From the IMG/VR virus record IMGVR_UViG_3300031949_000021: a stretch of DNA of 64,000 nucleotides; one strand, given 5' to 3'. How positions within the stretch are numbered: position 1 is the stretch's first letter; every line of letters begins with the position of its first letter. The translations under genes and the position numbers were made by a program. The notes beneath the pieces are model-generated. The model was not told the DNA's origin. It saw only the letters and a program-made list of their open reading frames with translations, and did not search any database. Shown here one piece after another: positions 4,319-62,965 of the stretch. This DNA comes from an uncultured virus (IMG/VR IMGVR_UViG_3300031949_000021). Taxonomy: Duplodnaviria > Heunggongvirae > Uroviricota > Caudoviricetes.

Positions 4319-4319
4319 C

Positions 4320-18261: not shown

Positions 18262-18268
18262 CAAATAG

Positions 18269-18354
18269 GCTGAGGTATGCAAATTGGGTGAAGCAAGCAG
18301 ACTGTAAATCTGTGATATTAAGAAACATTGAAGGTTCGAGTCCTTCCCTCAGCA
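18269..18354 (+). tRNA. tRNA-Tyr(GTA)
   Basis: GCTGAGG/CCTCAGC acceptor, GCAGA-CT-GTA-AA-TCTGT, long variable arm, GGTTCGAGTCC. Confidence 0.9.
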
Positions 18355-18356
18355 CT

Positions 18357-18428
18357 GTGAGCGTAGCTTAATGGTAAAGCGTCAGGTCGTGGCCCTGAAG
18401 GATCTGGATTCGAGTTCCAGCGTTCACC
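18357..18428 (+). tRNA. tRNA-His(GTG)
   Basis: GTGAGCG/CGTTCAC acceptor with C discriminator, TCAGG-TC-GTG-GC-CCTGA. Confidence 0.85.
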
Positions 18429-35609: not shown

Positions 35610-38600
35610 TGCTTGAACCATTAACAAAAAAACAAAAAGCTTTATTACAAATATTAAGAAGTGATATCTATGCCCCTCAATTTTTATGGAAGGATAAAGA
35701 TGGTGTAAACGTCTATCGTGTTTATGATTATCAATACTATTTTGAAGATAGTAACTATGGGGGTATGGCTATATTTAGTGATGCAAGATCGGTAGGAAAA
35801 TGTATTGCTGAAGGAACTAAAATATTAAATCCAATAACAGGTGATTATAAAAAGGTAGAGGATTTAAATAATCAAACTATTCCTGTAGTTTCAATTGATA
35901 TTAGTAGATTGAAAGTTGAGCAAGCAAAAGTTTTTTCAAATGGGGTTAAAGATTGTTATAGATTAAAACTTAGATGGGGAAGAGAAATTGAAGCCACTGC
36001 AAACCATCCTTTTTATACTTTGGGTGGTTGGAAAAAATTAAAGGACATACACCCCGAAGAATATATTGCTGCTCCTATGGAAATGCCTTATTTTGGAAAA
36101 GAAACATTAAAAGATGATGAAGTTAAGTTTTTAGCCTATATGATTGGTGATGGGAATTGCATAGACCCAAACTGTAGATTTACTAATGCTAATCAAGAAA
36201 TAGTAAAAGAGATGAATGACATATTAGCATATTTTGACTGTCTTTTAGTTAAAGAAAAAACAAGGGACTATGAATATAGGATACAGGGTAATAAGTTTTA
36301 TAAAAATAATCCAGCAAGAATGTTTTTAAGACAGCATAAAGTTTTTAATAGGTATAGTTATCAGAAAACTGTTCCAGAGGCCATTTTTAAACTAAAGAAA
36401 AAACAGATCGCTTTATTTATAAACAGGTTATTTTCATGTGATGGTTGGGCTGTACAAACTGAAGAGGGCTATGGAAGAGTGGAGTATGGGACTTCTTCTA
36501 AGGAATTAGCTTATGATTTACAACATTTATTATTAAGATTTAGCATAATTTCTTCTATTAGTAAAAAGAAGACATCTCATAGAGATAGTTATACAGTTAG
36601 TGTGTCTAGTTTTGATAACATTAAATTTATGAAAGAGATTGGAATATTCACTAAACAAAAAAAATACAAAAAGAACCATAAAAACCGTAGGAGGGAAGAA
36701 AAACTAGCCCATGGCTCTAGAGGAAGTATTGTTTGGGGAAATCTTAGGTGGATGAAAGTAAGAGATATAAAATATATCGGTAAGTTGAAAACATATAATT
36801 TAACTGTTGAAAACACACACAATTTTATTGCCAATGATGTTTTATCCCATAATACGGAAAAATTAAAACGTAGATCGTTTACTATGCCATTTAGAAAACC
36901 TGGTAAAAGTAGGATGATATCTACTCCACAAGAAGCTCATTTAAATCCAGTAATGGAACAAATAATAGATAAATTTGAAGAAATAAGATTAACTAAAGAG
37001 TTTATTAAAAGAGCTAGAAGAAAACCTTATTATCATATCACATTTAAAAATGGAACAGAAATAATAGGTAAAATACCAGGGAATAAGGGCATTAATGTAA
37101 AGGGAGAACATGTAGATGAAGAAGCTGTGGATGAATGTGGTAGTGGGGTAGCTTATGTTTCTTTGGCAGACGGATCAAGTAAAAAATTAGGCGAAATTGT
37201 AAGAAAAAAGCTATCCTTAGAAGTAATATCCTATAATTTTTTTAATAGAAAAATAGAAACGAAGAAAGTAATTAATTGGTTTAAAAAGAAACCAACAGAT
37301 AGTTGTAAGTTTTTAAGGGTGGGATTTAAAAATTACTATTACAGGCCAAAATTTACTGGAGATCATAAGTTTGCTACAAAAGATGGGTGGGTTAAGGCCA
37401 GGGATTTAAAATCTGGAGATTTAGTTTATAGTAATGTGCCCAAGCCTACAAAATTGCAGCAAGGTATTCTTTTAGGGAAACTACTTGGGGATTCTTACGC
37501 TTTTAGACAACAATCTTGTAGTAAAGGAAATAAAAGAATAGTACCCAATGCTAAGATTGTTATTTCTCAAGGATCTAGGGATAAAGAGTATGTATTTGAT
37601 TGTTGGAATTTATTGCAAGGATTAGTTAAGGGAATTCCTTTAACAAGAGAAAATTTAGGTTGGGGGAAAGAATTAACTAAGTTTAAAACTAGGGCATTAC
37701 CTGAAATTACTAAATTGTATAATCTAGTTTATAAGGATGGTAGAAGAACAATAACACAAGAGCTATTAGAGAAATTATCTCCAGCAGCAATTGCTTTTTG
37801 GTTTATGGATGATGGTAGTTGTAGTCAAGGGACGTTTACTTTATCAACACACTGTTTTACAAAGGATGAAAATCAACTTATAGTGGATTATTTTTTAGCT
37901 ACATGGGGAATACCCATGAAAATGAAGTTAGATAAAAGATGCAATAAGTATTATTTAAAAAGTAATGGAAAACCACAAAGATTATTTGCGCTTATTGCTC
38001 CTTATGTTTGTAAGTCAATGAGAAGGAAATTACCAGCGGGCTATAAATGTGGGCAGTTATTGCCAGATAAAGAGGAGACTAAGATTGGTTTTTTGGAAGT
38101 TGAAACTGTTGAGGAATTAGATTTGAAATCTTGGGGTTTTGGAGACAATTTTCTTTATGATATTGAAGTAGAAGATAACCATAACTATTTTTCTCAAGGA
38201 AGTTTAGTTTCTAACAGTCAAGATTACCCCGATGAGGGCTGGGAGAATATTCGTGAATGTTTAAATGAGGTTTTAGATAAGGAATTAATTACTTATGGAG
38301 TACCTAATGGGGTAAGAAATACTTTTTTTAATTTTACTAGAAGTAAAGAATTTACAAAAGTAGTTATTCCAGCTATGTATAAACTTTCATGGGGAGAAAA
38401 AGAAAGAAGTGAAAAGATAGCTTTTTATGGTAGTCGGCGTGCTCCTGGATATGTAAGAAATATATATGCGGAGCATGGTGATGCGGAACATTTAGTTTTC
38501 ATACCATCTAAATTAAGTAATGGAATTGATTGGGGCAAAAAGCAATCAGATGGAACTTATGATAAGGATAAACCAAAATTTACCGAAGATTATATAAAGA

Positions 38601-39322
38601 TATCTATTATAAATGAAGAAGTAAATCGTAATATGTCCTTTAAACACTATCTTCGCTTTCCAGAAATACATAAAAAGTATGAGAGAGTTTGGGTAGGTGC
38701 TGATATAGCACATCAAGGAGCAGACCCCACAGAAATACTTATTTGGGCAGAAGAGGTATATAAAAATAAAAATAGGGTGCGTTTAATTTGTAGGGTACAC
38801 TGTGAAAGATTAACTGATGAGGATCAAGTAGATATTTTTCAAGAAATTTATAAGTTTTATAATGTAACAGGTATGGCTATGGATGCTACGGCAAGAGGAG
38901 GCACTATTTGGCAAAAATTAAATAATAGAAAATTAGGGAACGTTTATCTATCAGGATATAATTTCAAGTCTGTAAAAGAAGTAGGAAAAGATGAAAACGA
39001 TAAGCCAATAAATATTCAAATTAATCAGTTAGCAATTGAAACATTAAGAAACATGTGTGATCACATTGAATTTTTATTGCCTTATGATGAAGAAATAATT
39101 TCTGATTGGATGGGATTAAAAGTTAAGCCATTAGAATACGGAAAATTTAAGGTTGTAGATGAGGCAAAGTTTAAAACCCACACTCTCTATGCAGCAGGAA
39201 TGATGGCATTACAAAGAGATGACTATAGAATGGGAAAACTACAAGAAGATGCAGATTCAGTATATGAAGAAGGAGGATGGGTGGACGGTCATTATGGAAG
39301 AACACCAGGAGCATCAAGATAA
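35609..39322 (+). CDS. terL: Terminase large subunit with two inteins
   Basis: Walker A ARSVGK|T, Walker B VDE|SQD, YGVPNG, nuclease motifs VGADIA..DPT and MDAT. Confidence 0.9.
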   Translation: MLEPLTKKQKALLQILRSDIYAPQFLWKDKDGVNVYRVYDYQYYFEDSNYGGMAIFSDARSVGKCIAEGTKILNPITGDYKKVEDLNNQTIPVVSIDISRLKVEQAKVFSNGVKDCYRLKLRWGREIEATANHPFYTLGGWKKLKDIHPEEYIAAPMEMPYFGKETLKDDEVKFLAYMIGDGNCIDPNCRFTNANQEIVKEMNDILAYFDCLLVKEKTRDYEYRIQGNKFYKNNPARMFLRQHKVFNRYSYQKTVPEAIFKLKKKQIALFINRLFSCDGWAVQTEEGYGRVEYGTSSKELAYDLQHLLLRFSIISSISKKKTSHRDSYTVSVSSFDNIKFMKEIGIFTKQKKYKKNHKNRRREEKLAHGSRGSIVWGNLRWMKVRDIKYIGKLKTYNLTVENTHNFIANDVLSHNTEKLKRRSFTMPFRKPGKSRMISTPQEAHLNPVMEQIIDKFEEIRLTKEFIKRARRKPYYHITFKNGTEIIGKIPGNKGINVKGEHVDEEAVDECGSGVAYVSLADGSSKKLGEIVRKKLSLEVISYNFFNRKIETKKVINWFKKKPTDSCKFLRVGFKNYYYRPKFTGDHKFATKDGWVKARDLKSGDLVYSNVPKPTKLQQGILLGKLLGDSYAFRQQSCSKGNKRIVPNAKIVISQGSRDKEYVFDCWNLLQGLVKGIPLTRENLGWGKELTKFKTRALPEITKLYNLVYKDGRRTITQELLEKLSPAAIAFWFMDDGSCSQGTFTLSTHCFTKDENQLIVDYFLATWGIPMKMKLDKRCNKYYLKSNGKPQRLFALIAPYVCKSMRRKLPAGYKCGQLLPDKEETKIGFLEVETVEELDLKSWGFGDNFLYDIEVEDNHNYFSQGSLVSNSQDYPDEGWENIRECLNEVLDKELITYGVPNGVRNTFFNFTRSKEFTKVVIPAMYKLSWGEKERSEKIAFYGSRRAPGYVRNIYAEHGDAEHLVFIPSKLSNGIDWGKKQSDGTYDKDKPKFTEDYIKISIINEEVNRNMSFKHYLRFPEIHKKYERVWVGADIAHQGADPTEILIWAEEVYKNKNRVRLICRVHCERLTDEDQVDIFQEIYKFYNVTGMAMDATARGGTIWQKLNNRKLGNVYLSGYNFKSVKEVGKDENDKPINIQINQLAIETLRNMCDHIEFLLPYDEEIISDWMGLKVKPLEYGKFKVVDEAKFKTHTLYAAGMMALQRDDYRMGKLQEDADSVYEEGGWVDGHYGRTPGASR
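35801..36853 (+). mobile_element. Intein 1 (351 aa, LAGLIDADG) in TerL Walker A
   Basis: CIAEGT start, ATANHPF, LAYMIGDG, LFSCDG, SHN/T end. Confidence 0.93.
37136..38215 (+). mobile_element. Intein 2 (360 aa, LAGLIDADG) in TerL Walker B
   Basis: CGSG start, TGDHKF, LGKLLGDS, AFWFMDDG, YDIEVEDNHNY, VSN/S end. Confidence 0.9.
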
Positions 39323-39435: not shown

Positions 39436-39999
39436 TTGTTAGTGAATACTATAAGGAAAAAGATGAATAATTCTTTACCTAAACCAGATAAAAATTTAAG
39501 GGTTTCAAAGAAAAAACATAAAAAATATGCTAAGTCTACATTAAGAAAATATTGGAAGGATAGTGAAAGAGATTTAGGAACTTTTATGCTAAATCACGAT
39601 GAACCAGACCCTAAATTTGCTCCTGCTTTAAGCTCCCGCGGAAGAATCGGCCATATCACGGGTTTAGAAATGGATACTGTAACAATGAACTGGGTAGGAG
39701 AGAACAAGCAAGTTGAATCAATGCCAAAGTGGTTAATAAAAGCAATTCTTAAAATAATGCAAAGAGCAAAAGATTATGATAGATTTCCTTTATTAAGATT
39801 AGATATTACACAAGAGTTATCAGGCCATGATAGACGAAAAATGTTTAATCCAAAAGATAAACCAGTAGAGCAGTTATCTCAAGTGGAACAAAGACTAGTT
39901 AATAATGATATGAGATTAAAGAGATTACCTGATTTAGCAATTATTCCTTTAGACATATTAGGGGAATTAATGGAGAAGAAAGCAAGGGAAAGTAACTAA
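39436..39999 (+). CDS. Putative PD-(D/E)XK nuclease/resolvase-like protein
   Basis: WKDSER...MD......GENK pattern; weak. Confidence 0.35.
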   Translation: MLVNTIRKKMNNSLPKPDKNLRVSKKKHKKYAKSTLRKYWKDSERDLGTFMLNHDEPDPKFAPALSSRGRIGHITGLEMDTVTMNWVGENKQVESMPKWLIKAILKIMQRAKDYDRFPLLRLDITQELSGHDRRKMFNPKDKPVEQLSQVEQRLVNNDMRLKRLPDLAIIPLDILGELMEKKARESN

Positions 40000-40270
40000 C
40001 CTCGGGGCAAGCCCCAAGGCTTTCTAACAGCCTTATAGTTACCAGACCACTAATAGGAGGTAAGAGTTGTTAGTAAACGATAGGAAAGAAATTAGGAACG
40101 GAAGTGTGCCACACCAGCACCCCCCTCTTCGAATACAGATTAAACATTGCTGTGAGGTAGGCAAAGTGTCTGTATTGTCAAACCTTTCCATATCTGGTCG
40201 AGGTGAAGATGAATTCAACAGTAGCTCCAATACTGTTGATACACACTACTCTAACATACAGGAGGTCATA
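39992..40270 (+). ncRNA. omegaRNA scaffold of IscB #1
   Basis: About 280 nt directly upstream of iscB; GTAACTA/TAGTTAC closing stem enclosing GGGGC-AA-GCCCC and GGCT/AGCC hairpins; TTAAACA and GGTCGAGG motifs near the 3' part. Confidence 0.8.
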
Positions 40271-40275
40271 AAGAC

Positions 40276-41508
40276 ATGGTGTATGTAATTAATAAGAATA
40301 GCAATCCTTTAATGCCTTGCTCAGAAGCAAAAGCTCGTAAACTTTTACGAGATAAAAAAGCAAAATGTGTTAAAAGAAACCCTTTCATAATTAAACTTTT
40401 GTGGGATTGTGAAGAAAATACTCAGAAAGTAGTTGCTGGTATGGACACAGGCAGTAAAACCATTGGTTGTGCTGCTATTTCTAATGGAAAAGTAGTATAT
40501 CAATCAGAAGTGCAAGTAAGACAAGATGTTTCTAAAAAGATGGGGCAACGTAGAATGTATCGTAGAAACAGACGTAGTAGAAAAACAAGATATAGAAAAT
40601 CTCGTTGGCAAAATCGTGCTTCAATGAGAAAAGAAAATCGTTTGGCTCCCAGCATTAAATCTAAGATTGACTCACATTTAAGAGAGAAGCGGTTTGTAGA
40701 GTCTATATTGCCAGTATCACGCTGGCGTGTAGAAATAGCAAGTTTTGATATTCATAAGATTTCCAATCCCAATGTAAAGAGATGGGAATATCAAGAGGGT
40801 ACTCAAAAAGATTTCTATAACACTAAGGCATATGTTTTACATCGGGATAAATATCTATGTCAACATTGTAAAGGTAAGTTAAAAGACAAAAGGTTACACG
40901 CACACCATATTGTATTTAGAAGCAAAGGAGGAACCAACAGCCCTGACAATTTGATTACTTTATGCAAATCTTGTCACAATAGCCTACATAAGGGTGAATT
41001 TGAAATCAAGGGGATAAAGAGTAAGACAAAACACGTCACAGAAATTAGTATTGTGAAATCTCAATTAAAAAAACAATTTAGTAACTTTGAAGAAGTATTT
41101 GGCTATCAGACTAAACTCAAACGGGAACAAGTATTAAAATTACCTAAAACTCATTGGTCAGACGCTATTGCTATCTGTTGTGTAGAAGGAGAGTATGTTG
41201 ATCCTGATGGAATAGTTTACTATAAAAAGCACGTTTCTAAAGGGGATTATCAACAGACTAAAGGTAACCATTCTGAAAAGAAAATACCCACAGGGAAATT
41301 GTTTGGATTCCGTAAATTTGATTATATTCAAACACCCAAAGGAATTGGGTTTATAAAAGGCAAACGCAGTACAGGATTTTTTGCAATATCGGATTTAGCT
41401 GGAAAAGCCATAAGCGGATCAGTATGTATAAAAAAGAATTGTAATAGATTAAACGCAAGAACAACAACTTTAATTGAAAGGAGAGTGGCACATTCCTCTC
41501 CACTATAA
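40276..41508 (+). CDS. iscB: IscB RNA-guided endonuclease #1 (IS200/IS605 OMEGA)
   Basis: PLMP domain, RuvC-I GMDTG, Arg-rich bridge helix RRNRR, RuvC-II E..SFD, HNH (CQHC..HH..GGTN..NL..LC..CH), RuvC-III HWSDA. Confidence 0.95.
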   Translation: MVYVINKNSNPLMPCSEAKARKLLRDKKAKCVKRNPFIIKLLWDCEENTQKVVAGMDTGSKTIGCAAISNGKVVYQSEVQVRQDVSKKMGQRRMYRRNRRSRKTRYRKSRWQNRASMRKENRLAPSIKSKIDSHLREKRFVESILPVSRWRVEIASFDIHKISNPNVKRWEYQEGTQKDFYNTKAYVLHRDKYLCQHCKGKLKDKRLHAHHIVFRSKGGTNSPDNLITLCKSCHNSLHKGEFEIKGIKSKTKHVTEISIVKSQLKKQFSNFEEVFGYQTKLKREQVLKLPKTHWSDAIAICCVEGEYVDPDGIVYYKKHVSKGDYQQTKGNHSEKKIPTGKLFGFRKFDYIQTPKGIGFIKGKRSTGFFAISDLAGKAISGSVCIKKNCNRLNARTTTLIERRVAHSSPL

Positions 41509-41537
41509 GCAGATGGGGTATCCTGTGCCTAAATTTT

Positions 41538-43205
41538 ATGGGTGAGAAAAAAGAAGAAATAGCTAAGGATGAAGAAATTAATTGGGAAAAAGTAACTGGA
41601 GCATTTGTAGAAGATATGTCTCTTTCTACAGTAAGCACAATAAATGCTTTTAGAAGTACACAGTATCAAAAAGCGGAAGATTTATCTATTTATGACAAGA
41701 TGAAACTAGCAGGGTCTTATTTTACTACGGATAATATAGTACAAAATTGTTTTACTAGTCAAGTTTCGATGGCTTTTAATAGTCTTGAGCATAAAACAGT
41801 AAAAGACCCTACAAATTTATATAAGGATTTTTATGACTATTTAGCTAGAAGGTTAAATTTAAGGGCACTTTGCAGAATGTTTTATTTGTGCTCTTTAGTT
41901 TATTCTAATGTTTATATGCTTCAATTTTGGGAAGAGGTAGAAGTCCCTTGGGGAGCAAAGGCAAAGAAAGTTTTAACTATTCCTACGGAAATAACTTTGG
42001 TAGACCCAAGATATGGTAGGGTTTTAGGATCAACACTAAAGTACAATAGAAAAATTGGGATGCGGATTTCTAGAGAGGCTTACAATGATTATACGGCAGA
42101 AAATCTAAATGAGTTAAATGAGCAATATGCTAAAGACATATTTATAGGCAAATATGACTATAAGAATAAATATAACTACCGCAAGGATAACGGATTAGAG
42201 TATGGTGATGAGGTACTAGAGTTTAATCCTGAAGTGACTTCTCATTTTAAGTTTAGGGGACAAGATTTTAATAGGTATGCTACACCAATAATGGCAAATT
42301 GTTTTGATTGGATTCAGCGCAAAAAGAAACTAATGGAAGCTGATATGGCTGTTATTGATGGAATTATAAATATGATTTATCTTTTTACTATTGGAACAGA
42401 TGATCATCCAGCCAAAGGAAAAGGAGAACTTAACAAACTAGCAAGTCTAATTCAAAATACTTCTAGAACCTGTACATTAGTTTGGAACCACAGATTAAAA
42501 GTAAGTGTCATTTCTCCTGATGCAGATTCTTTATTGAATACAGATAAATATCATGTCTGTAACGATAATATTCGTGAAGGTCTGGGTTTTGAATTTAAAA
42601 ATACAATGAGTAGAGGACGAAGGGATATTGATAAGCTAATAAAGATTTTTTGTGAGGTTATCCTTTCTGATAGGCAGGATATTGTAGAGCATATTGAAAA
42701 AAATATATATGAAAAAGTTGCGGAAGAAAATAACTTTTACACATCAGCTTCAATGAAACCAAACAGAATTGGATTAGCAACTGATGATTTGTTAAAAGCA
42801 TTTGTTGGACTGTTTTATGACAGAGGTTTGCCTTCTAAGAGAACCACTATGGAGATTATGGGTCTTGATTATGATGAGGAAAAAGAATTAAAAATACCCG
42901 AAAAGAAAGATGTAGAAGAGGGTATTTGGGATATTCCTCAGTTGCCCTTTAGTCGGCCACAAACAGGTGGAGGTAAAGAGCAAAGTCAGGCAGATTTTAT
43001 TCCTATTGATATGTCAGTAGATAACTATTTAGACATTATTAATTCTGAAGTTAAAAAACCAGAGGTACATCAAGTTATTAAAGAAAAATTGCAAGATAGG
43101 CTAGGAGACTACTTTTCAGAAGAAGCACAAAATGACGAGGACTTAGATAAGCTAGTTAAAGATACAGCTAAAAAGTATGAAAAGAAAAAGAAGAGGGATA
43201 AATAA
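41538..43205 (+). CDS. Portal protein
   Basis: 555 aa between terminase and head genes; RYATPIM..CF, LFTIGTDDHPA, LVWNH. Confidence 0.75.
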   Translation: MGEKKEEIAKDEEINWEKVTGAFVEDMSLSTVSTINAFRSTQYQKAEDLSIYDKMKLAGSYFTTDNIVQNCFTSQVSMAFNSLEHKTVKDPTNLYKDFYDYLARRLNLRALCRMFYLCSLVYSNVYMLQFWEEVEVPWGAKAKKVLTIPTEITLVDPRYGRVLGSTLKYNRKIGMRISREAYNDYTAENLNELNEQYAKDIFIGKYDYKNKYNYRKDNGLEYGDEVLEFNPEVTSHFKFRGQDFNRYATPIMANCFDWIQRKKKLMEADMAVIDGIINMIYLFTIGTDDHPAKGKGELNKLASLIQNTSRTCTLVWNHRLKVSVISPDADSLLNTDKYHVCNDNIREGLGFEFKNTMSRGRRDIDKLIKIFCEVILSDRQDIVEHIEKNIYEKVAEENNFYTSASMKPNRIGLATDDLLKAFVGLFYDRGLPSKRTTMEIMGLDYDEEKELKIPEKKDVEEGIWDIPQLPFSRPQTGGGKEQSQADFIPIDMSVDNYLDIINSEVKKPEVHQVIKEKLQDRLGDYFSEEAQNDEDLDKLVKDTAKKYEKKKKRDK

Positions 43206-45560: not shown

Positions 45561-45605
45561 TAACTTTTAGAGAGGTGACTTAAATGTCAGTATTTGTAAT
45601 TGATA
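45561..45605 (+). repeat. 45-bp copy (44/45 identical) of 53106-53150: omegaRNA 3' end, RBS and first iscB codons
   Basis: TAACTTTTAGAgAGGTGACTTAAATGTCAGTATTTGTAATTGATA. Confidence 0.9.
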
Positions 45606-45630
45606 ATAATGAAAAAGGAGGAATAAATAG

Positions 45631-49551: not shown

Positions 49552-51240
49552 GTGTTAGCAGATTCACGCTTAACGGCAATTGATTCAACTACATACGAAC
49601 TAGAGGTGGCAGGGGAGAAAATTGAGCTTGGTGATAAGCAATCTCTTGATTTCAAACCTTGTGCCAAATTAAGTCGTTTTGATGGTGAGTGTTCTCTCTC
49701 TATTGAGCTGGAAACCATACAAAAAATAGATGCTGTTATAGAGGGTGATAGGCTTGAATGGAAGAACATTGATGAAGAAATCCATTTTTACGATAAAGGC
49801 AACAATGAGTTTGAACTTGAACATATTCTTCTAAAGAAACCCCTCTCAAACAAGCTGGCTTATAATCTAAATCTTGAAAACCTAATTGCTTATTATCAAC
49901 CGCCCTTAACTGAGGAAATCCCAGAAGCAAACTGGCATACCATAATTGAAACTGATGTATATGACAAAGATGGGAAAACGACAGTTCATCGTCCTGAAAA
50001 CGTTATTGGCTCTTATGCTGTGTATCATGTTGCTGGAACCAACATACATCATAGTGAAGCAAATGCGGGGAAATACAGGGCTGGTAAAGCATTTCATATC
50101 TATCGACCAAAGATAAAGGATTCGGCAGGGAAAGAGGTTTGGGGAACTCTTAATATCAGTGCTTCTACCTTGACCATTGAAATTGACCAGACGTTTTTAG
50201 ATGCTGCTGCCTATCCTGTGTATATTGACCCTACCTTTGGTTATACGTCTATTGGTGCGACTGATTATTCTATGGAAAATGAGCTAAGGGCTTCGCTCGC
50301 CACACCTGCTGCTGGTATGGCAACCAAAATGACTGCTTATACTGCGGATAATGGTGGAGGGCATAGGGTAAAGTGTGCATTATATGAGAAAAGCAATAGC
50401 GCTTTAGTCAAATCAAGCAATGAAGTTACCAATATAAGTAATGCCTATGCTTGGAATGATATTCCTTTTAGCAATCAAGCTATTATGGCCCCTGTTGAGT
50501 ATATGCTTGCTATTTGGTCTGAAGATGTTGGGGGATATTCTTCTGCTATTAAAGGTGACTCTACTTCGACTTACCATTATTACCAAGCTTTAACTTATGG
50601 AAGTTGGCCTGATCCTTTTATTGGGACTCAGGGTATTGCGGCCGTTATATATTCTATCTATTGTACTTATACACAAGGAATAATATTTAGACCAACAGGC
50701 GCAGGAAGTTTAACAGAGTGGGCATCTCAGTATCCTAATTCTACTGCTCATTGGGATAAAGTAGATGAAGTAGCTGCCGATGATTTGGCTACTTATGTTA
50801 TTGGTGAATATGATGCTTGGAAATATGATTTATATGATATTACCAACACTATTCCCTCTGGTTCTACTATAAATTCAGTTGGAATTTGTGGTCGTTTTTT
50901 TGGATCTGAAGCCTGGGGAGAACAAGGTAAATTAGGATTTAACGATGGTGTGGGTACATGGTGGAGTAGTCCGTTTACGCTTACACCACTCAGTAGTTGG
51001 GTAAATTATGATACAGGACTTCTTTCTACTAACCCTAGAACTTCTAGTGCTTGGACTTGGGCACAAATAGATGCTCTTCAAATTGGGATAGGACAATTAG
51101 GTATTTATGATGCAGAATATGACTATACAAGTTTGATATATTGTACCCAGGTTTATGTAGTAGTTGATTATACAGAAGGTGGTGGGGGGACAGTAGTTAA
51201 AGATATAATACAACAAGGATTAATACCTTTTGCTCGCTAA
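49552..51240 (+). CDS. Multidomain beta-rich virion protein
   Basis: RPENVIGSYAVY, GKAFHIYRP, AAYPVYIDPTFGY, NPRTSSAWTW. Confidence 0.65.
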   Translation: MLADSRLTAIDSTTYELEVAGEKIELGDKQSLDFKPCAKLSRFDGECSLSIELETIQKIDAVIEGDRLEWKNIDEEIHFYDKGNNEFELEHILLKKPLSNKLAYNLNLENLIAYYQPPLTEEIPEANWHTIIETDVYDKDGKTTVHRPENVIGSYAVYHVAGTNIHHSEANAGKYRAGKAFHIYRPKIKDSAGKEVWGTLNISASTLTIEIDQTFLDAAAYPVYIDPTFGYTSIGATDYSMENELRASLATPAAGMATKMTAYTADNGGGHRVKCALYEKSNSALVKSSNEVTNISNAYAWNDIPFSNQAIMAPVEYMLAIWSEDVGGYSSAIKGDSTSTYHYYQALTYGSWPDPFIGTQGIAAVIYSIYCTYTQGIIFRPTGAGSLTEWASQYPNSTAHWDKVDEVAADDLATYVIGEYDAWKYDLYDITNTIPSGSTINSVGICGRFFGSEAWGEQGKLGFNDGVGTWWSSPFTLTPLSSWVNYDTGLLSTNPRTSSAWTWAQIDALQIGIGQLGIYDAEYDYTSLIYCTQVYVVVDYTEGGGGTVVKDIIQQGLIPFAR

Positions 51241-51255
51241 GAAAGGAGTACAAAA

Positions 51256-52938
51256 ATGGCAGAGATTAAGGTAACAATTCCAGATGATAAAATTGCAAAG
51301 GTGATTGACTCATTTGTTAGTTGCTTTGGTTATCAAGCAACAATAGACGGGCAACCAAATCCGCAGACAAAAACACAATTTACTAAAGCACAGATAATTA
51401 AATACATAAAAGCTGTTGTAAATTCAGTTGATAAAACTGCTTATGATCAGAACTTTATACAAGAAGATATTAGCATAACTTAAAAAGGAGAAATAAATGG
51501 GTAGGATATATTTAATTTTACTAGGAATTATTTTGGTATTTGGGTTATTTATGTTTTCGGGGCAAATTAGAAAACAAAATAGCTGCCTTACAAAAATTGA
51601 AGATAGAGTAGTAAAACTAGAGAGAGTAAATAAAAATAAAGTAGAAGCAAACAAGATTTTAAGGAGCAAGATTGAAGAATTAGAATTTAATTCCAAAGAC
51701 CATATAGATAGAATATATGATATGGAAGGTCATGTTGATGACTATAATCTAATTCTTGAGATGGTTTTGAAGCATCCCACAGTGCAAACAGAACTTGCAA
51801 AACATAATATACCTATTCAGAAACTTCTTGATGATAGGGCAAAAGCAGAAGAACAACATTAAAAGGAATAAATATGTCTGTTACAATTATAAAAACCGTA
51901 AATTTTGGAAAAAGTAAAACAGGTCTTGAAGGTACTGTTGGTTATACTCTTTATAATACTAATGAAACAGAAAAACAAGCACGTACAACTTCTGGTGTCT
52001 ATGAACTTGGAACTAGTACAGGAATATATGCTTGTAACATAACATTGGATATTGATTGGAATGGTACAATTCTTTGGGATACTGGGGAAGCAACACCAAG
52101 TTATGCTACAGAAGAGTATAATCATCAAGATGCTGGTGATATAGACCAGATAGAATCTAATACAAACAGAGGATTGATCACTTAGAAAGGAGATAATATG
52201 AACCCTGATTATAAAGTTGGGGAGTCTATTGAAGTTTTATATGTGCCTGGGAATTTTCAATCAGGTCAAACAGATTGTAAGGTAGACATATTTGATGAGA
52301 GTGATGTTATAGTTGCTGGGTCTCCTTTTGCTATGGTAGAAAAAGATGACGGGGCAGCTACACCCGAACTTATAGGGGTCTATGCCTATTCTTTTATCCC
52401 CGACGAAGAGGGTATTTGGACAGCTAAAGTTTATCGCTTAGTTGGAGGGGAAAAGAAATTTGCTAAAGTTATTAAGTTTAGCGTTAAACCAAAGGATATT
52501 TCTGATTTAATAGATGATGTTGAAGTTATTAAAGGAGCAAGTTTTAATTCTTTAACAGATTCTTTAGAGGCAATTAGAGATGCAGTAGATGAAATTTCAG
52601 AGGGAGGACAAGTATTATAACTTCTGAAAGGAGGATTAAGGATGGATTTCTTTAAGGAAAGAAAGAATGATTTAGCTAAGATAAAACAGGAAGTCGAAAA
52701 TATTATAGCTATTCGACAAAGTAAACTTAGTTTACTTGAAAAAGAGCTAAAAGATTTGTTGCTTGATAAGGCAAAAATTGAAGGAAGAATTGAGGAAGTA
52801 ATTTTACTAGATAAAAGTTTTAGTGAAAGTCCTGATAAGAAAAAGCCTAAAATATCTAGTGGAATTATAGATGGGGAAATGTCTGTAGAACAACTTATCA
52901 AGGCAAAACAAAAGACCAAAAAGAAGGAAGCCAAGTAA
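51256..52938 (+). other. Accessory late ORFs (51256-51483, 51497-51862, 51874-52185, 52198-52620, 52642-52938)
   Basis: Each preceded by an AAGGA(G) RBS. Confidence 0.7.
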
Positions 52939-53115
52939 TAAGTAATTACGGCTTCGAGGCTAAGTTGGGAAGTGACCAACTACGACTTCTGTTTATCCGA
53001 AAGGATAGTCACCTTGAGATTTATCCAGTCTCAAGCTCTGATAGTTTCTGAGAAAGCTCAAAGAAACTTAAACAGACAACAGACGGTCATTGCCGAGGAT
53101 AACAATAACTTTTAG
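52927..53115 (+). ncRNA. omegaRNA scaffold of IscB #2
   Basis: First stem GAAGCC..GTAAT/ATTAC-GGCTTC; CTAAG..CTACG; TATCC-GAAA-GGATA; TTGAGA/TCTCAA-GCTCTG; TTAAACAG; CATTGCCGAGG. Confidence 0.8.
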
Positions 53116-53128
53116 AAAGGTGACTTAA

Positions 53129-54307
53129 ATGTCAGTATTTGTAATTGATAGTAAAGGAAAGCCTTTACTTCCTACTTGTGAAGCAAGAGCAAGACTTTTA
53201 TTAAAAAAGAATAAGGCAACAGTATATTCAGTTGAGCCATTTACAATTAAATTAAAAAGGGCAATAAAAAATCCAATGGGTGGGTTTAAAGTAGGGATTG
53301 ATGATGGTGCAAAAGAGGTTGGAATATCAGTAGCCTATAAAAACAAGGTAGTTTTTGCTGGGATAATCAAGTTAAGACAAGATGTACATAGAAAGATGCT
53401 TCAAAGATCACAATATCGAAGAACTAGAAGATGTAGAAAGCTTAGACATAGAAAAGCAAGATTTTTAAATAGTGGCAGAAAAGGTTGGATACCCCCAACT
53501 ATAAAGCAAAAGAAAGAATCAATATTGAGAGTAATTGACGATTTAAAGAAGCGATTAAATATTACAGAAGGCACTATAGAACAAGGGCAGTTTGATACTT
53601 CTTCGATGAGTAGAGGGTATCAATTAATAGGAAAAGAATATCAATTATCAGAATATGTGGGAAATACTTGGAGACAAAAAGTTTTATGGCGAGATAAGTA
53701 TATTTGTCAACATTGTGATAGTAAAGAAGAATTACAAGCTCATCATATTATTTTAAAGTCTAAAGGTGGAACTAATAGAGTAAATAATGGAATTACCTTA
53801 TGTAAAAAATGCCATAAAGAGTTACATGAAGAAAGATGGGAATTAAGTAGAAAACCAAGACATTTTAAGTATCCAACTCATTTACAGCAGGGAAAACAAT
53901 ATTTATTTAATGAGTTAAAAAAGAGATTTCAAAGTATAGATGTTTGCTATGGTTGGATGACGGCAAAAGCAAGGAAGGCATTGGGGTTAGAGAAAGAGCA
54001 TTATCACGATGCTTCTGCAATGATTGGGGCAAATAAATATTATTGTAAACTTTATATAATAAAACCAAAAAGGACTAAAATATGGGAAAACAACCCAACA
54101 AAGACTTGTAATGAAAAAAATGGTTTTAGGCATATGGACATAGTTAAAGCAAAACACAGAACTAGAGGTACTGTTATTGGATCAATAAGGAGTTTGAAAG
54201 CTAAAGTAATAACATTAAGAACAAGTTTTGACGATAACTTTTCTGTAAGTTATAACAAAACAAGATTATTATGGAGACCTAAAGGTTTAATTTATTGTAG
54301 AAGTTAA
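53129..54307 (+). CDS. iscB: IscB RNA-guided endonuclease #2
   Basis: PLLP, RuvC-I GIDDG, RRTRR, E...FD, HNH (CQHC..HH..GGTN..NGITLC..CH), HYHDA. Confidence 0.95.
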   Translation: MSVFVIDSKGKPLLPTCEARARLLLKKNKATVYSVEPFTIKLKRAIKNPMGGFKVGIDDGAKEVGISVAYKNKVVFAGIIKLRQDVHRKMLQRSQYRRTRRCRKLRHRKARFLNSGRKGWIPPTIKQKKESILRVIDDLKKRLNITEGTIEQGQFDTSSMSRGYQLIGKEYQLSEYVGNTWRQKVLWRDKYICQHCDSKEELQAHHIILKSKGGTNRVNNGITLCKKCHKELHEERWELSRKPRHFKYPTHLQQGKQYLFNELKKRFQSIDVCYGWMTAKARKALGLEKEHYHDASAMIGANKYYCKLYIIKPKRTKIWENNPTKTCNEKNGFRHMDIVKAKHRTRGTVIGSIRSLKAKVITLRTSFDDNFSVSYNKTRLLWRPKGLIYCRS

Positions 54308-54314
54308 AAGGGAG

Positions 54315-54935
54315 GTGAAAAATATGGCGATTTACAAAAGTGGTGTAGCTATTGAAGTAAGATATGCCCCACCAGATTTTCAAAGTGGTTTAAGTGATGT
54401 AAAGATGGAAGTATATGATGAGGCAGGTGTCGAAATTGCTGGTAGTCCTTTTTCTATGACAGAGATGGATGATGGTGCTGCAACACCAACACTATTAGGT
54501 GTTTATGAGGACACATCTAATTTTTTACCTGATGCACAGGGATCTTGGACAGTTATTTGCTACTCTATTGCTAATGGTGGGAAAACAGCTAAGACTTACA
54601 AAATTGAAGCTCATGATATTGATGATCTTGGTACAGATTTGGATACAATTATAGCTGATACTAATGAATTACAGACAGATTGGGCAGATGGTGGTAGACT
54701 TGATCTTCTTATTGATGCAATTAAGGCTCAAACAGACTTGTTACCTTCTGATCCAGCAGATCAATCAGCAGTAGAAGCAGCAATAACGGCAGCTCATGCA
54801 ACTACAGATGGTTTAATTACTACAGTTGATGGAGTTGTAGATGGTATTCAGACGGATTTAAGTAATGGAACAGATGGCTTGGGAGCAATTAAGGCTGCTG
54901 TTGACGCAATCGGTACTGGAGGAATAATTCTCTAA
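54315..54935 (+). CDS. Virion protein, paralog of 52198-52620
   Basis: Shared IEV.Y.P..FQSG, AGSPF.M.E.DDGAATP.L.GVY and a similar C-terminus. Confidence 0.7.
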   Translation: MKNMAIYKSGVAIEVRYAPPDFQSGLSDVKMEVYDEAGVEIAGSPFSMTEMDDGAATPTLLGVYEDTSNFLPDAQGSWTVICYSIANGGKTAKTYKIEAHDIDDLGTDLDTIIADTNELQTDWADGGRLDLLIDAIKAQTDLLPSDPADQSAVEAAITAAHATTDGLITTVDGVVDGIQTDLSNGTDGLGAIKAAVDAIGTGGIIL

Positions 54936-54959
54936 AATTAGAAAGAAGGAGGAGAATAA

Positions 54960-55640
54960 GTGAATGTTTTAACACCAACAGCAGATTATCAAATTTTATA
55001 TCGAGATATCAACTATCAAGAGGGTCTTTCATTAAATGCCTATCTTTATTCTCCTCCAACTTTTACTAAAAGTGGGCCTCTTCCTTTAACTGAAATAGCC
55101 GATGGCTATTATTATTTAGAGGTAGACCTATCAACTGAAGGAACATATATTGTTAAAATAGAAAATGCTTCTGAAGTTTATAGGATTGTTAATATGGCAA
55201 AAGAAACTTCAATTCAAAATATAGAAGATTTAATGAAAGCTACAGTAGTTTTTAATAAGACTACTAACAAGCTAAGTTTTTATAAAGATGCTGCAAGAAC
55301 TCAATTAATTGTGGAATTTGTTGTTTCAGATACAGTTTCAGAAACTTCAAAGACTAAGTTATAAAACCTATTTTTGGGACAGTGATTTAAAATGGTAGAA
55401 CCAATCAAAAGAAGCGACGATATTTTAGATGATATAAAAAGAAGTGATACTCTAGGTGATGCTGGTTTTACTGTAACTGATGCTTTACCTTTAGTAACAG
55501 ATGGGTTTGTGACTAAGGATGGTTGGAGAGCAAAAACATATCTAACACATGGTCTATGGCCTTTTCTTAAGACAATACTGGATTACTTATTAAAAAGATA
55601 TGATGAAATAATAGACATTATAAAAAGACATACACCATAA
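54960..55640 (+). other. Hypothetical late ORFs (54960-55364, 55392-55640)
   Basis: ORFs in frame with the late operon orientation. Confidence 0.6.
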
Positions 55641-55706
55641 GTATTCTGCAAAACTATTATTGGGTATAATGAAGAAGTTTATGCTGATTAAAATAAGGAG
55701 AAACTA

Positions 55707-56423
55707 ATGGCAGAATTTTATCTTAAAAATTTAGCCCCCTATCTTGCAAGATCTGTAAAGGACTTGGGAAAAATGGTCCGTGATGATAATTGTGGGGTGG
55801 GTAATGGCAGCAAAACCACTTTTAGAACAAACCACTTTCCAGTTAAAATTAATTCCTTAACTGCTTATGTTGATGGAGTTGAAGTAGATGTTGATGAATA
55901 TGATTACACATATGGCACATTTACTTTAGTTAGCACGCCAACAGCAGGACAATTAGTTACAGCAAATTATGTGTATTATAGTTGGCCTGATGGTCTATTA
56001 CAGGATTATATAGCAGATGCAGTTATTCGTGTAGAAGCAATAGTATATAACCAGGGATATGTAGTACAACGAGACCCAACTACAGATGATGCCTATTTGG
56101 AATCAGAACCAGATCAAGCAACAAAAATGTTATATGTAATACAAGCTACAATAGATTTTGCTAACTCCGATATTGGTGGAGATAGTTTAATCAGCACTAG
56201 AAATTTTAAAGACGATGAAGTAGAACAATCTTATACAAGAAGTGCTCAATTAACAAGAGACTACTTGAATAATTTATATAAAGAAAGAGATCGACTAGCC
56301 GAAGCCCTTATTTCTGATGATTCAGATTATGGATATTATATAGAGAGCACGCTCAATACTAACGAAGCCAGGATGAGATATCTGGATTCTATAGCTGTTG
56401 GGGCGTATGAAGAAATTGGATAA
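55707..56423 (+). CDS. Putative head-tail adaptor with an inserted Ig-like domain
   Basis: Helical connector-like protein with a GNGSKTTF..P.....AYVDG....PTAGQLVTANY insert; position. Confidence 0.55.
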   Translation: MAEFYLKNLAPYLARSVKDLGKMVRDDNCGVGNGSKTTFRTNHFPVKINSLTAYVDGVEVDVDEYDYTYGTFTLVSTPTAGQLVTANYVYYSWPDGLLQDYIADAVIRVEAIVYNQGYVVQRDPTTDDAYLESEPDQATKMLYVIQATIDFANSDIGGDSLISTRNFKDDEVEQSYTRSAQLTRDYLNNLYKERDRLAEALISDDSDYGYYIESTLNTNEARMRYLDSIAVGAYEEIG

Positions 56424-56434
56424 GAGGAGATAAA

Positions 56435-56890
56435 TTGGCTAATTGGTACTCTTCTGACGAAATAAAAGAGCAAATAAATGAAATTAGAGACTTAACAGGA
56501 GACTCTAATAGAGTATATTTAATTACAATTACAGAAGCAGATTGCCCATCTTGTGAGTATAATGAAGTTACTCACGAATCTAAAGATAGTAGTTGTGTAA
56601 CCTGCGGAGGTAGTGGTAAATTACCAACGGAATCATCTGTATCCTTATTAGCTAAAATAAGATGGGTAAATGAAATAGAGGCCAATTTAATGAAAATAGG
56701 TTATTTACCAAGAGGAGGAGTAACTATCACTATAGATAATACTTATGAATCAAATATAGATAATCTTACTCCAATAGATAGAGTAGAGGTAGATGGAATA
56801 GAGATAAGAATAAAAGGAAAAAAACCGAAAGGGTATAAGAAAGTAAACCGAACAGTATTTTATGCTGAGCCAATATCATTAAGCACATAA
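56435..56890 (+). CDS. Putative head closure protein
   Basis: CPSC..CVTCGGSG and DRVEVDG; synteny. Confidence 0.55.
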   Translation: MANWYSSDEIKEQINEIRDLTGDSNRVYLITITEADCPSCEYNEVTHESKDSSCVTCGGSGKLPTESSVSLLAKIRWVNEIEANLMKIGYLPRGGVTITIDNTYESNIDNLTPIDRVEVDGIEIRIKGKKPKGYKKVNRTVFYAEPISLST

Positions 56891-58341: not shown

Positions 58342-59121
58342 ATGAAAAGGAGTGAAAACTTAGTGCGGAATGATTTAACTAAGGAAGTTATTTGTAAAAA
58401 ATATGTGGAAGAAAAGAAGTCTATTAATAAGATTAGTGAAGAACTAAGGTCATCTCATACCACAATAGCTAATAGGTTAAAGACTTATGGGCTAGAAATA
58501 AGAGATTATCATAGATTTAACGAATTTGATAAAGAATTTTTTGCACAAAATTATGTAAAAAATGAAAAATCTTCAAAAGAAATTGCAAAAGAGGTTGGAG
58601 TATCTCAAGGAGCTATTTTAAATCGGCTTAGAAAACATAATATAGATATTAGAAAAAGAGAATCTAAGGATATCAAATTAACCGAAACACAAAAAGCATA
58701 TATAGCTGGTGTAATAGATGGAGAAGGTTGTATTTGTTTATATAAAAGTAATTCTAGGCATATATTATGTGTATCCTTTACATCAACAGATAAAAGATTG
58801 ATAGCCTATTTATCTAAATTGCTAGATTGGAATTTTGCTTATACAAAGCCTAAAAATAGGATATGGAAAACTTCTTATAGATTACAGGCAATGGATTCAA
58901 GATCAGAAAGAGCTTTAAAAGATATACTACCTTATTTAATTATTAAAAGAGAACAGGCAGAATTAGCTTTAAGATTTAGGGAGACTTATAAGATTAAATA
59001 TCCTAAAAGAAAAGGGATACCTAAAAATATTTGGGATTTAAGAGAATCCCAAGAAAAACAGATGCATATTCTTAATAAAAAAGGTGCATCAAATAAACCT
59101 ATTGAAAAGGAGGTTATTTAG
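58342..59121 (+). CDS. LAGLIDADG endonuclease with two N-terminal HTH repeats
   Basis: AYIAGVIDGEGCI, ILPYLIIKREQA; two YV.EKKS..I.....G.S...I.NRL repeats. Confidence 0.88.
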   Translation: MKRSENLVRNDLTKEVICKKYVEEKKSINKISEELRSSHTTIANRLKTYGLEIRDYHRFNEFDKEFFAQNYVKNEKSSKEIAKEVGVSQGAILNRLRKHNIDIRKRESKDIKLTETQKAYIAGVIDGEGCICLYKSNSRHILCVSFTSTDKRLIAYLSKLLDWNFAYTKPKNRIWKTSYRLQAMDSRSERALKDILPYLIIKREQAELALRFRETYKIKYPKRKGIPKNIWDLRESQEKQMHILNKKGASNKPIEKEVI

Positions 59122-60455: not shown

Positions 60456-61075
60456 GTGAGATTATGTAAGTGTGGCTGTAAAAAGTCTACCACTAGGGAA
60501 GAAAACAATTTTATTCAAGGACATAACCTAAAGAATAGGATTGTTGCAGTGGAAACCAAAAGAAAAATATCTGAGGCACTAAAAGGTATAAATAACCCTA
60601 ATTATGGCAAGCATTTTTCCGAAGTAACTAGAAAAAAGATGTCTAAAGCACGTAAAGGAAAAAAGAATTCTTTTTACGGCAAGCAGCATTCGGCAAAGAC
60701 AAGGGAAAAGATGCATAAAGAGCACAAAAAAGGACAGATTGCCTGGAATAAGAATTTAACAAAAGAAACAGATGATCGTGTGGCGGGGATAGCCAAAAAA
60801 TATCAAAGGCAGCAAGAGGAGAAAATAATTCTTCTTGGAAAGGTGGCATATCATTTGAACCATATTCTTTGGAATTTAATAATGAGTTGAAGGAAAAAAT
60901 TCGAAAAAGAGATAAGTATACATGCCAAAAATGTGGTATTAAAGAACCGTTAAATAATTATTTTAAAGTTTTAGATATTCACCATAAGGATCACAATAAG
61001 AAAAATAACAGCACTCAAAATTTAATCTCACTGTGTAGAAGTTGCAATGTAAAAGAGAATAAGAAGATAGTATAG
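60456..61075 (+). pseudogene. NUMOD3-HNH endonuclease split by a frameshift near 60795-60800
   Basis: NUMOD3 repeats (NPNYGKHFSE.TRKKMS); the -1 frame continues GENNSSWKGGISFEPY..RDKYTCQKC..HHKDHNKKNN..NLISLC. Confidence 0.75.
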
Positions 61076-61219: not shown

Positions 61220-62178
61220 ATGAGTAAAATTAGTATTAAAGACCTGTACAAGATTGAAAAGGTAGTTACTGTTAAGGATGAAAAAACAGGAAATGAAGCA
61301 GATGTATGTTTAAGAATTATATCAGATAGTGGAAGAGAAGATGCAATTAGATATGCAAACAAAGAAAAAGCAGAATTAGCTAAAAAGCTAGAGGATAAAG
61401 ATAGCCCAGAGTATTTTGCTTTAAAAGAGCAGATAAAAAATTCTCCTGTAGACACATTAGAACTAAAGATTAAAATTATAAAAGAGTCTTTAGTTGGTGA
61501 TGAGGCATATTTAGCTTTGAGAGCAGATGATAAGTATAAAGAGTTGGATGATGGAGAATTATCAGATAGTGAAGATTTTCAAGATGCCTATCTTAAAGAA
61601 AGAAGTAAAATAGCTGATGAGTATCTTGAAAAGCTAGATAAAAATGAAAATAATCTTAGAAAAGAATTAATGGATTTGCAGCTTAAATCCATGCTTAATT
61701 CTTTTTTTATGCACAGTTTTAATGAAAAGATTTTAGTACATGCTATAAGAGATCCAGAAGATTCTTCTAAAAGACTTTTTGATTCTGTAGAGAAGATGAA
61801 AGATAACTTTTTTGGGGATAGTTATGTACAACTAATTGAAAAATATTATGGTCTTTCTGGAAATAAAACGGAGAATGATATAAAAAACTAGCACAAAGCG
61901 ATACCTTTCTTAATTTAGTTGGTATCGCAAAGGATTTTAATAACCTAGATTCTCTACTTCCAGAAGGAATAAAGAAATTGTATGACGTTCCGTGGACTAT
62001 TATTTTAGCTATAGAACAGGCTAAGAAAGTACTTAGTTGGTATGAAAATTTATCAGAAGAAAAAAGACCACCGAAAGAAATATGGAAAAATGATAGAAAA
62101 CTTAAAAAATGGTTTGATGATGTATTCGGAGATAAAGGAAATAAGCACTACGATAGTTATATCAAAGTTGATAAGTAA
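61220..62178 (+). CDS. Tail assembly chaperone with programmed -1 frameshift (G/GT pair)
   Basis: ORF 61220-61891 ends A-AAA-AAC-TAG; the -1 frame is open to 62178. Confidence 0.8.
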
Positions 62179-62203
62179 ATTGTTTGAGAGTGTGGTGATT
62201 AAA

Positions 62204-62965
62204 ATGTTTGGAAGAGAATATGTTAGTATTTATTGGCATACTTGTAAATATTGTGGTAAAGATTTTTATGAAAAGTCTAGTAGTAGAAAAAGAATTTTTT
62301 GTAGTAAGAGTTGTTGGAATAAATATTATCGAGGAGAGCGTAGTTTAGATGTAAACTTTTTTAAACAATGGACAGAAGAAATGGCCTATATTCTAGGATA
62401 TATAGCCGCAGATGGGTGCATTAGTAGATCTAATGGTTATCCTTATCTAATGTTTGCTAGTATTGATAAGGACATAATATTGAAAGTAAGGAAAGTATTA
62501 AAGTCTACCCATAAAATACGGGAGTTGTTTCCTAACGGATTTAAAGGAAAAAAACAGTATCACCTGTCTATTGGAGCAAAAGATATTTGGGAAGACTTAG
62601 AAAGTTTAGGGATAACTGAAAGGAAGTCTTTAACTTTAAAATTCCCTAGTGCGCCAAAAGAATACCAAAGACATTTTATTAGGGGATATTTTGATGGAGA
62701 TGGGTATATAACAAAGTGTGAAGACAGAGATACGATTGGATTTTTGGGTACTTATGACTTTATATCTACTGTAGAGAATATTTTTAGAAATAGGCTTAAT
62801 ATAAGAGAAAAAAAGATTCAGGAAATAGAATCTGGCAAGTTGCATAGAATCAATTATTACACTAGGGAAGCTTTTTCTATTTTAGAGTGGATGTATAAGG
62901 ATTCAAATATTTATTTAGACAGAAAATATAACAAATATAAAGAGATGATAGCTTATGCCAGATAG
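62204..62965 (+). CDS. LAGLIDADG homing endonuclease with N-terminal zinc finger
   Basis: CKYC..CSKSC, AYILGYIAADG, HFIRGYFDGDG, YLDRKY. Confidence 0.9.
   Translation: MFGREYVSIYWHTCKYCGKDFYEKSSSRKRIFCSKSCWNKYYRGERSLDVNFFKQWTEEMAYILGYIAADGCISRSNGYPYLMFASIDKDIILKVRKVLKSTHKIRELFPNGFKGKKQYHLSIGAKDIWEDLESLGITERKSLTLKFPSAPKEYQRHFIRGYFDGDGYITKCEDRDTIGFLGTYDFISTVENIFRNRLNIREKKIQEIESGKLHRINYYTREAFSILEWMYKDSNIYLDRKYNKYKEMIAYAR

Follow-up and report, generated by a model that had tools for sequence, protein, structure and literature searches.

In IS605-type elements, the IscB nuclease cleaves donor sites that have become empty and thereby brings the transposon back; one end of the transposon gives rise to the omegaRNA, and the target-adjacent motif (TAM) adjoins the opposite end. 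These properties are described in the Meers preprint (10.1101/2023.03.14.532601), in which homing by IscB in bacteria has also been published. A 2026 review presents OMEGA systems as composite homing endonucleases and covers the free-standing homing genes of phages, and its accessible text makes no link between IscB and phage homing (PMC13565253). According to Goltsman et al., few HEARO nucleases lie near TnpA (PMC9755519), and HEARO is listed in phage genomes in a Silviavirus paper that assigns it no role in the accessible text (PMC13346280). In the literature searched, mostly at the title and abstract level and without supplements, no paper claiming IscB homing between phages was found. Here, we analyzed IscB #2, the second IscB encoded by a 64,000-nucleotide stretch of an uncultured Caudoviricetes virus, a large soil phage (IMG/VR record IMGVR_UViG_3300031949_000021; hereafter, the window). 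The features given below for this element, its two neighboring genes, and a related relic are all on the + strand.

IscB #2 resembles the IscB of Geobacillus ISGst5, which has a published homing role via cutting of the empty site, in its protein family, in an upstream omegaRNA with a putative flank-derived guide, and in its co-orientation with the upstream gene (10.1101/2023.03.14.532601). Unlike elements of the ISGst5 type, it has no TnpA and no far end with a hairpin and is located in a phage late operon; its scaffold is 202 nucleotides (nt) long compared with an average of 242 nt (10.1101/2023.03.14.532601), and the motif after the element is GGAGG-like, not AT-rich. The scaffold is similar to HEARO RNA (Rfam RF02033) with an HNH open reading frame (ORF), since the match covers the full-length model with the helices in the same order, but it reaches 51.4 bits versus a threshold of 83, and its first-stem insert is reduced to a 17-nt loop. 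With the T4-like free-standing homing genes described in the review (Seg and Mob; PMC13565253), IscB #2 shares a position between conserved genes, presence or absence among relatives, an age younger than that of its flanks, and a genome with many other homing genes. In contrast to Seg and Mob, it would read its target by an RNA guide plus a short motif and not by protein alone, and its guide would change automatically with the insertion site. The HEARO/IscB loci of Staphylococcus Herelleviridae likewise combine an IscB-type gene with a HEARO RNA in a large virulent phage (PMC13346280), but their relation to IscB #2 is distant only (tblastn identity of 31–33%).

Our judgement leans, if only slightly, toward the reading that IscB #2 and its omegaRNA are an intact, selfish, free-standing homing-type element of phages, which is independent of TnpA and has GGAGG as its candidate TAM. 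In IMG/VR, four full-length relatives were found, namely L001 (89% amino acid (aa) identity), L002 and L004 (74–75%), and L003 (66%). L001 belongs to a related phage, in which the portal-like, capsid, and neighboring genes are ~73% nt and 65–74% aa identical to those of the window. The iscB of L001 is 90% nt identical to the window copy and is located after the capsid gene; at that site, the window has no iscB and only an intergenic hairpin. At the window's iscB site, L001 carries a 140-aa gene (82%) and then directly the homologue of 54960..55364. The dS of iscB between the window and L001 was 0.42, compared with 1.39, 1.73, and 1.62 for three backbone genes, and the element is thus closer between the two genomes than the backbone, as homing genes are. 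These results show that the IscB #2 element was recently exchanged between phages and is much younger than the backbone. The dN/dS ratio of the two iscB copies was 0.13, indicating purifying selection.

As the compact first stem and an altered 3′ end are common to the copies of the window and L001, the compact form of the element has moved to another site or another host genome on at least one occasion. The original prediction, which was made from the sequence without database searches, had held that the element can no longer transpose. This claim is unsupported, as the compact form is found at a different junction in L001 and hence has been relocated or transferred since compaction. Furthermore, a relic left by a second member of the IscB #2 family lies at 45561..45612, where ~50 nt comprise the 3′ tail of the omegaRNA, the iscB ribosome-binding site (RBS), and the first 8–9 codons, followed by an AGGAGG junction. 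This relic sits at a third junction, before the gene at 45631, and the homologous junction of L001 has no insert.

The iscB gene (53129..54307) is an intact ORF of 392 aa. The encoded protein matches Pfam RRXRR (9.8e-49, residues 3–172) and Pfam HNH (2.5e-9, residues 193–234), and its best match among solved chains is 9k2z_A (named HfmIscB; E value of 1.5e-46, residues 3–384); a literature search on the name HfmIscB gave no result. Pfam and the solved chain therefore place in it the RuvC-like domain and arginine-rich helix, split by the HNH domain, that define an IscB. IscB #2 is 37% identical to IscB #1 (40276..41508), and D58, E151, H205/H206, H229/H233, H291, and D294 are invariant in all six aligned sequences, including IscB #1. 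By analogy with the D58/H209/H210 mutant of GstIscB (Meers preprint, 10.1101/2023.03.14.532601), these conserved motif residues would have a catalytic role. Judged by its sequence, the ORF at 53129..54307 is a genuine second IscB of the window.

A structured omegaRNA lies directly upstream of iscB on the same strand, as indicated by a sub-threshold HEARO match, covariation, and RNA folding. The scaffold (52926..53128) runs from the first stem to the iscB start, and in a permissive scan, the HEARO model was matched over its full length (1–211) at 52926..53108 with an E value of 4.6e-9. The default Rfam scan found HEARO only ahead of IscB #1 and missed the IscB #2 scaffold because its 51.4 bits are below the gathering score of 83. 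When folded as RNA, 52907–53128 reached −58.4 kcal/mol (z of −3.79), and none of 200 shuffled sequences folded as well. The first stem (52927..52955) is formed by GAAGCC (52927–52932) and GGCTTC (52950–52955) around a 17-nt loop with stop codons, and the TAA of the upstream ORF (52936–52938) lies inside this loop. In relatives, the stem covaries (GGAGCC/GGCTCC, GGAGCT/AGCTCT, GGAGTT/AACTCT, and AATGCC/GGCATT). The RNAalifold consensus of 28 sequences has 40 pairs, 30 of which show compensatory changes. The window forms 33 of the 40 as aligned, and five of the seven unformed pairs reflect a MAFFT slip in the first stem, which truly pairs at 6/6 positions. With a length of 183 nt by the HEARO match or 202 nt from the first stem to the ATG, the "about 190 nt" of the original prediction is a fair estimate; its descriptions of a second, divergent 392-aa IscB and of a first stem that overlaps the end and stop codon of the upstream gene also held, and every coordinate that it gave was confirmed. 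Taken as a whole, the IscB #2 nuclease and its RNA look functional.

The comparison drew on about 45 relatives; the window and 49 loci were examined, of which 12 duplicates found by script and L125 (identical to L004) were removed. A nucleotide search of GenBank phages with 51200–56500 gave no match, and at the protein level, only distant relatives with at most 37% identity were found, those in Staphylococcus phages being one example. Of the 80 loci obtained from one metagenome scan, L124–L168 belong to the IscB #2 family (~50–89% identity); for the remaining loci, the identity to IscB #2 is ~35%, and many have nucleotide-level matches to the IscB #1 region. When 185,579 species, each represented by one genome, were scanned with two exact peptide patterns, by which absence is not proven, only two weak hits were obtained (55% and 50%). 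In a PHROGs search of 74 of the 96 flank ORFs, several family loci were phage-like, with an endolysin, a minor tail protein, a UvsX-like recombinase, RtcB, and other HNH endonucleases as flank genes. Two short contigs of one DNA run (X1) match iscB at 53948–54241 with ~88–92% identity, and other family variants probably occur in the same sample. Among the contigs of this run, which may be the source, four short pieces matched the window, and none of them spanned an element joint; no RNA run was found.

Ahead of the first stem, the flanks of 32 relatives are unrelated between loci, and the alignment starts directly at the 5′ strand of this stem, which reads GGAAGCC in the window and mostly GGAGCC in the relatives. 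On the other side, nucleotide similarity to the window stops at 54298–54308 in 10 relatives. The unit common to the relatives begins with the first stem and finishes with a short tail behind the stop codon. A co-oriented upstream frame of 60 codons or more terminates within −25 to +16 of the first stem in 16 of 28 loci, and 10 of these 16 frames have their stop inside the element. Because upstream frames end at or in the element in many loci, the overlap with the upstream stop is a family habit, and the element start carries stop codons that close whatever frame reads in.

The element is located between a 98-aa ORF (52642..52938), which has a strong RBS before its ATG at 52642 and whose last four codons and stop lie inside the first stem, and a gene of 203 aa (54324..54935), which is a paralogue of the 140-aa gene at 52198..52620. 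The start of the downstream gene was assigned to ATG 54324 because its three closest fetched homologues all begin with MAIYK. The two paralogues are 44% alike in their N-terminal halves, as compared via the L001 copy, and L001 has one such gene. In IMG/VR, the 98-aa ORF had no relative, the best matches of a 206-aa protein were confined largely to its C-terminal half and were set aside, and the 140-aa gene was found only on the L001 contig, where it is an island of higher similarity (84% nt, dS of 0.69) amid poorly conserved neighbors; this island suggests a recombination boundary at the nuclease gene.

The sole homologue of the 98-aa ORF in a large protein collection was P0002 (78% identity), which ends with KTKKKGGK where the window ends with KTKKKEAK; in the window, EAK and the stop are encoded by the first stem of the element. 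The Gly-Gly of P0002 is what a GGAGG right after guide-like codons would encode. P0006 is 56% identical to the downstream gene and also starts with MAIYK. Both are single records from the same source, and each was recorded from one contig of 1450 nt. If this is one and the same contig, the two genes (252 and 612 nt, together 864 nt) leave at most 586 nt, which is too little for the ~1380-nt element, so an IscB-free allele flanked by P0002 and P0006 is probable. When 52926 of the window is joined to 54310, the upstream ORF closes after two more codons with TGA (54316–18), 5 nt before ATG 54324, and the joined flanks make a normal operon junction. An exact 28-nt search of IMG/VR with the guide-side flank gave 0 matches.

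The element lies precisely between two genes of the late operon, with the first omegaRNA stem as its 5′ end; this stem replaces the last codons of the upstream ORF and supplies new stop codons, and the 3′ end consists of the iscB stop and a few bases directly before the RBS of the next gene. In the mechanism that we propose, the element would be transcribed together with the late operon, and the 16–20 nt of flank before the scaffold would serve as the guide. The putative guide (52911..52926, or 52907–52926 as a 20-nt version) is flank derived and was placed by the IscB architecture described in the Meers preprint (10.1101/2023.03.14.532601). In a cell infected by both a carrier and a related phage without the element, the complex would cleave the latter's matching junction, with the GGAGG-type motif after the target as the candidate TAM, and recombinational repair from the carrier would copy the element in, so that TnpA would be unneeded. 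The orientation of iscB is the same as that of the late operon, with which it is co-transcribed in the original prediction, and no + strand terminator-like site was found within 52000–54400 and hence none between the flanking genes; promoter-like sites in this interval were no commoner than in shuffled sequences. In a search of the window allowing 0–1 mismatches, the only match of the guide was the guide itself.

If this mechanism is true, RNA-guided nucleases of the type ancestral to Cas9 would act as homing genes in conflict and exchange between phages, independently of transposons, which would link OMEGA systems to phage homing endonucleases and partly explain mosaic boundaries in phage genomes. 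If the TAM equals the RBS, insertion into operons without harm would follow a simple rule. The natural 202-nt scaffold of this 392-aa IscB would also show which parts of the omegaRNA are dispensable in nature, which is relevant to compact genome editors.

Several points weigh against the homing-type reading. The proposal that IscB #2 persists as a free-standing homing endonuclease fits its distribution, as it is present or absent between related phages and younger than the backbone, but cleavage is a prediction, as are the guide, the TAM, and homing. The homologous loci gave sharp ends and a presence/absence difference, but both neighbors of the element are also absent from L001. On its 103-kb contig (estimated to be 57% complete), neither the 98-aa ORF nor the 203-aa paralogue nor a copy of the element at the window's site was found, so L001 is not a clean empty allele. 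The placement of P0002 and P0006 on one contig is deduced from their equal contig size of 1450 nt and common source. The HEARO score of the scaffold is below the gathering score, and the window has lost a hairpin bearing a TAAG motif, which might impair its RNA. A hop to a new, nonhomologous junction is unexplained by homing alone. In addition, an RBS-type GGAGG is expected before gene starts in such phages anyway, and its presence alone does not prove a TAM; seven of 27 family rows (L002, L147, L149, L153, L154, L155, and L159) have no GGAGG within 25 nt of the stop, although the L154 contig ends 22 nt past the stop. In favor of more than coincidence, GGAGG keeps a fixed register with the tail and also occurs in L138, in which the next ~40 nt contain no start codon; L001 has a GGAAAG variant at the GGAGG position. 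A GGAGG-type TAM is therefore attractive but unproven.

A broader proposal, which we offer tentatively, is that IscB #2 represents a phage-adapted IscB lineage that recognizes the downstream Shine-Dalgarno GGAGG as a TAM and targets the final codons of the upstream gene. Such a lineage would home into gene junctions in densely packed phage operons, and occasionally hop between them, without a transposase, and its insertion would be nearly harmless, as it brings its own stop codons and leaves the RBS in place. The sub-lineage of the window would have lost the first-stem insert and an 18-nt tail, its former transposon ends, together, resulting in the smallest natural scaffold of the family.

As an alternative, IscB #2 could be an ordinary nonautonomous IS200/IS605-type (ISC) element that is moved in trans by a host TnpA and whose ends are short or lie within the omegaRNA or the ORF. 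We consider this unlikely. A transposase could explain the change of site between the window and L001, and some family members have features reminiscent of transposon ends. In typical members, the stop codon is followed by an 18-nt A/T-rich tail, (A/G)GGAGG, and a start codon 1–14 nt further. Of 27 family rows, 19 have GGAGG within 25 nt past the stop, and in 11 the tail measures exactly 18 nt before GGAGG; this tail is conserved among the members with a long first-stem insert. The tail of some typical members matches a segment of this insert as an imperfect inverted repeat (13–14 of 16 positions), and in five of the 22 elements scored, the repeat was beaten by only 0–2 of 200 shuffles. It is near the chance level in many other scored elements, including the window, and was kept as a lead only; the repeat is at shuffle level in most elements, which argues against this alternative. 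An element that starts with GGAG and is followed by GGAG would also resemble the mutually related motifs that IS605 elements have at their two ends according to the Meers preprint (10.1101/2023.03.14.532601). The window element begins with GGAAGCC and is followed by GGGAGG (GGAGCC and AGGAGG in typical relatives), and this comparison is clouded by the fact that the motif after the element doubles as the RBS of the next gene.

The 3′ end of the window element gave no indication of a transposon end. The iscB stop (54305–54307) is followed by AA, by GGGAGG (54310..54315), which is the RBS of the next gene and the candidate TAM, by 8 nt, and by ATG 54324. The last 90 nt contain no hairpin (z of +1.37 and +1.45 versus shuffles for the two DNA strands). 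The original prediction was thus correct that the stop runs at once into the next RBS, with only 2 nt between them, and that an IS200/605-type right-end hairpin is missing; no far end is recognizable. The subterminal hairpins that IS200/IS605 elements carry at both ends were not found, as the 3′ 90 nt fold no better than shuffles and the 5′ first-stem insert is absent. The 3′ end of L001 folds no better than shuffles (z of −0.03), and among the relatives, only L004 has a clear small 3′ hairpin (z of −2.13). A 3′ subterminal hairpin as a family feature was rejected, since L164, L134, and L139 fold no better than shuffles.

Neither the first-stem insert nor the proximal tail is present in the window or L001. 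Elements whose first stem is compact (window, L001, and L003) have almost no tail, and in 13 of 15 elements with a first-stem loop of 56–76 nt and a visible 3′ end, a tail of 12–23 nt precedes GGAGG, suggesting that the insert and the tail may be former end modules that were lost jointly. A possible remnant of the 18-nt tail, fused into the end of the ORF, lies at 54299..54309, where 9 of 11 positions agreed in a manual comparison. By eye, AGAAGTTAAAA before GGGAGG in the window resembles the distal tail GGAATTTAAAA before AGGAGG. The resemblance would imply a 10-nt deletion that took out the former stop; this alignment of the window 3′ end was not the one selected by MAFFT.

A search for the transposase itself was negative. 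No TnpA was found among the window ORFs scanned (74 with Pfam and 40 with PHROGs, not every small ORF among them), and the Pfam domain Y1_Tnp was found in none of four related viral contigs (22–82% complete), with the same search positive in six of 14 control genomes. A TnpA is therefore missing from the element, the tested window ORFs, and the four viral contigs, where an IS200/IS605 element would carry or find one. In L003, a 394-aa ORF (3437–4618) ~1.2 kb upstream of IscB matches PHROG 506 ("transposase"; E value of 6e-97) and may be of the TnpB type.

Improbable in our assessment is a second alternative, in which the window element is a decaying copy that was inactivated by a window-specific loss of an omegaRNA hairpin on top of earlier losses, with the ORF still intact since the damage is recent. 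The scaffold is indeed reduced. Measured from first stem to ATG, no other of the 28 scaffolds is as short as that of the window (202 nt); L003 follows with 205 nt and L001 with 227 nt, typical family members have 250–272 nt, and the longest has 285 nt. Of the 32 relatives listed, 14 have a first-stem loop of 56–63 nt, as opposed to 17 nt (window and L001) and 16 nt (L003), and the first-stem insert, which consists of two small hairpins in typical members, is absent from the window. Moreover, the TAAG-motif hairpin is kept in 27 of 28 sequences and is missing from the window alone, the HEARO score is sub-threshold, and the relic at 45561–45612 is a clearly decayed sister element. In contrast, the ORF is full length with every conserved motif residue present, and purifying selection acted over a dS of 0.42, that is, after the first stem was already compact. 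Relative to the general HEARO consensus, the TAAG hairpin counts as an insertion; the short hairpin of the window fits that consensus well, and pairing is kept in the other consensus helices (33 of the 40 pairs in the alignment and 6/6 in the first stem).

The least probable alternative, recruitment of IscB #2 by the phage for its own benefit, for example, to cut competitors that have the target junction (interference competition), agrees with a conserved iscB that is co-oriented in the late operon and with phage nucleases described to act in competition (PMC13565253, in its accessible text), but the different positions in two related phages and the relic indicate turnover and not fixation, the guide matches nothing else in the window, and competition and homing are not mutually exclusive.

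In agreement with the homing-type reading, the phage genome around IscB #2 is rich in homing-type genes and intein-like inserts. Core genes with intein-like or nuclease inserts are a UvsX-like recombinase with a LAGLIDADG part (21379–23481), a DNA polymerase with an HNH part (28706–31432), and a protein of 1237 aa (35609–39322) that combines a LAGLIDADG part with a weak match to terminase. Five free-standing homing-type nuclease genes are located at 27768–28337, 34125–34808, 58342–59121, 60456–61075 (60456/60869), and 62042–62965; their types are HNH_3/NUMOD4, LAGLIDADG_3, and NUMOD3 plus a separate 68-aa HNH ORF, which may be a split gene. IscB #1 occupies the region 39985–41549, with a HEARO match of 89 bits at 39992–40213 and the ORF at 40276–41508. 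The start of its omegaRNA likewise overlaps the stop of the upstream gene (39997–39999), and its relatives have ~35–40 nt in common past the stop, unlike the IscB #2 family. L001 has no IscB #1, as the same two genes are separated by 93 nt in L001 and by 1621 nt in the window. A cluster of four tRNA genes lies at 18113–18428.

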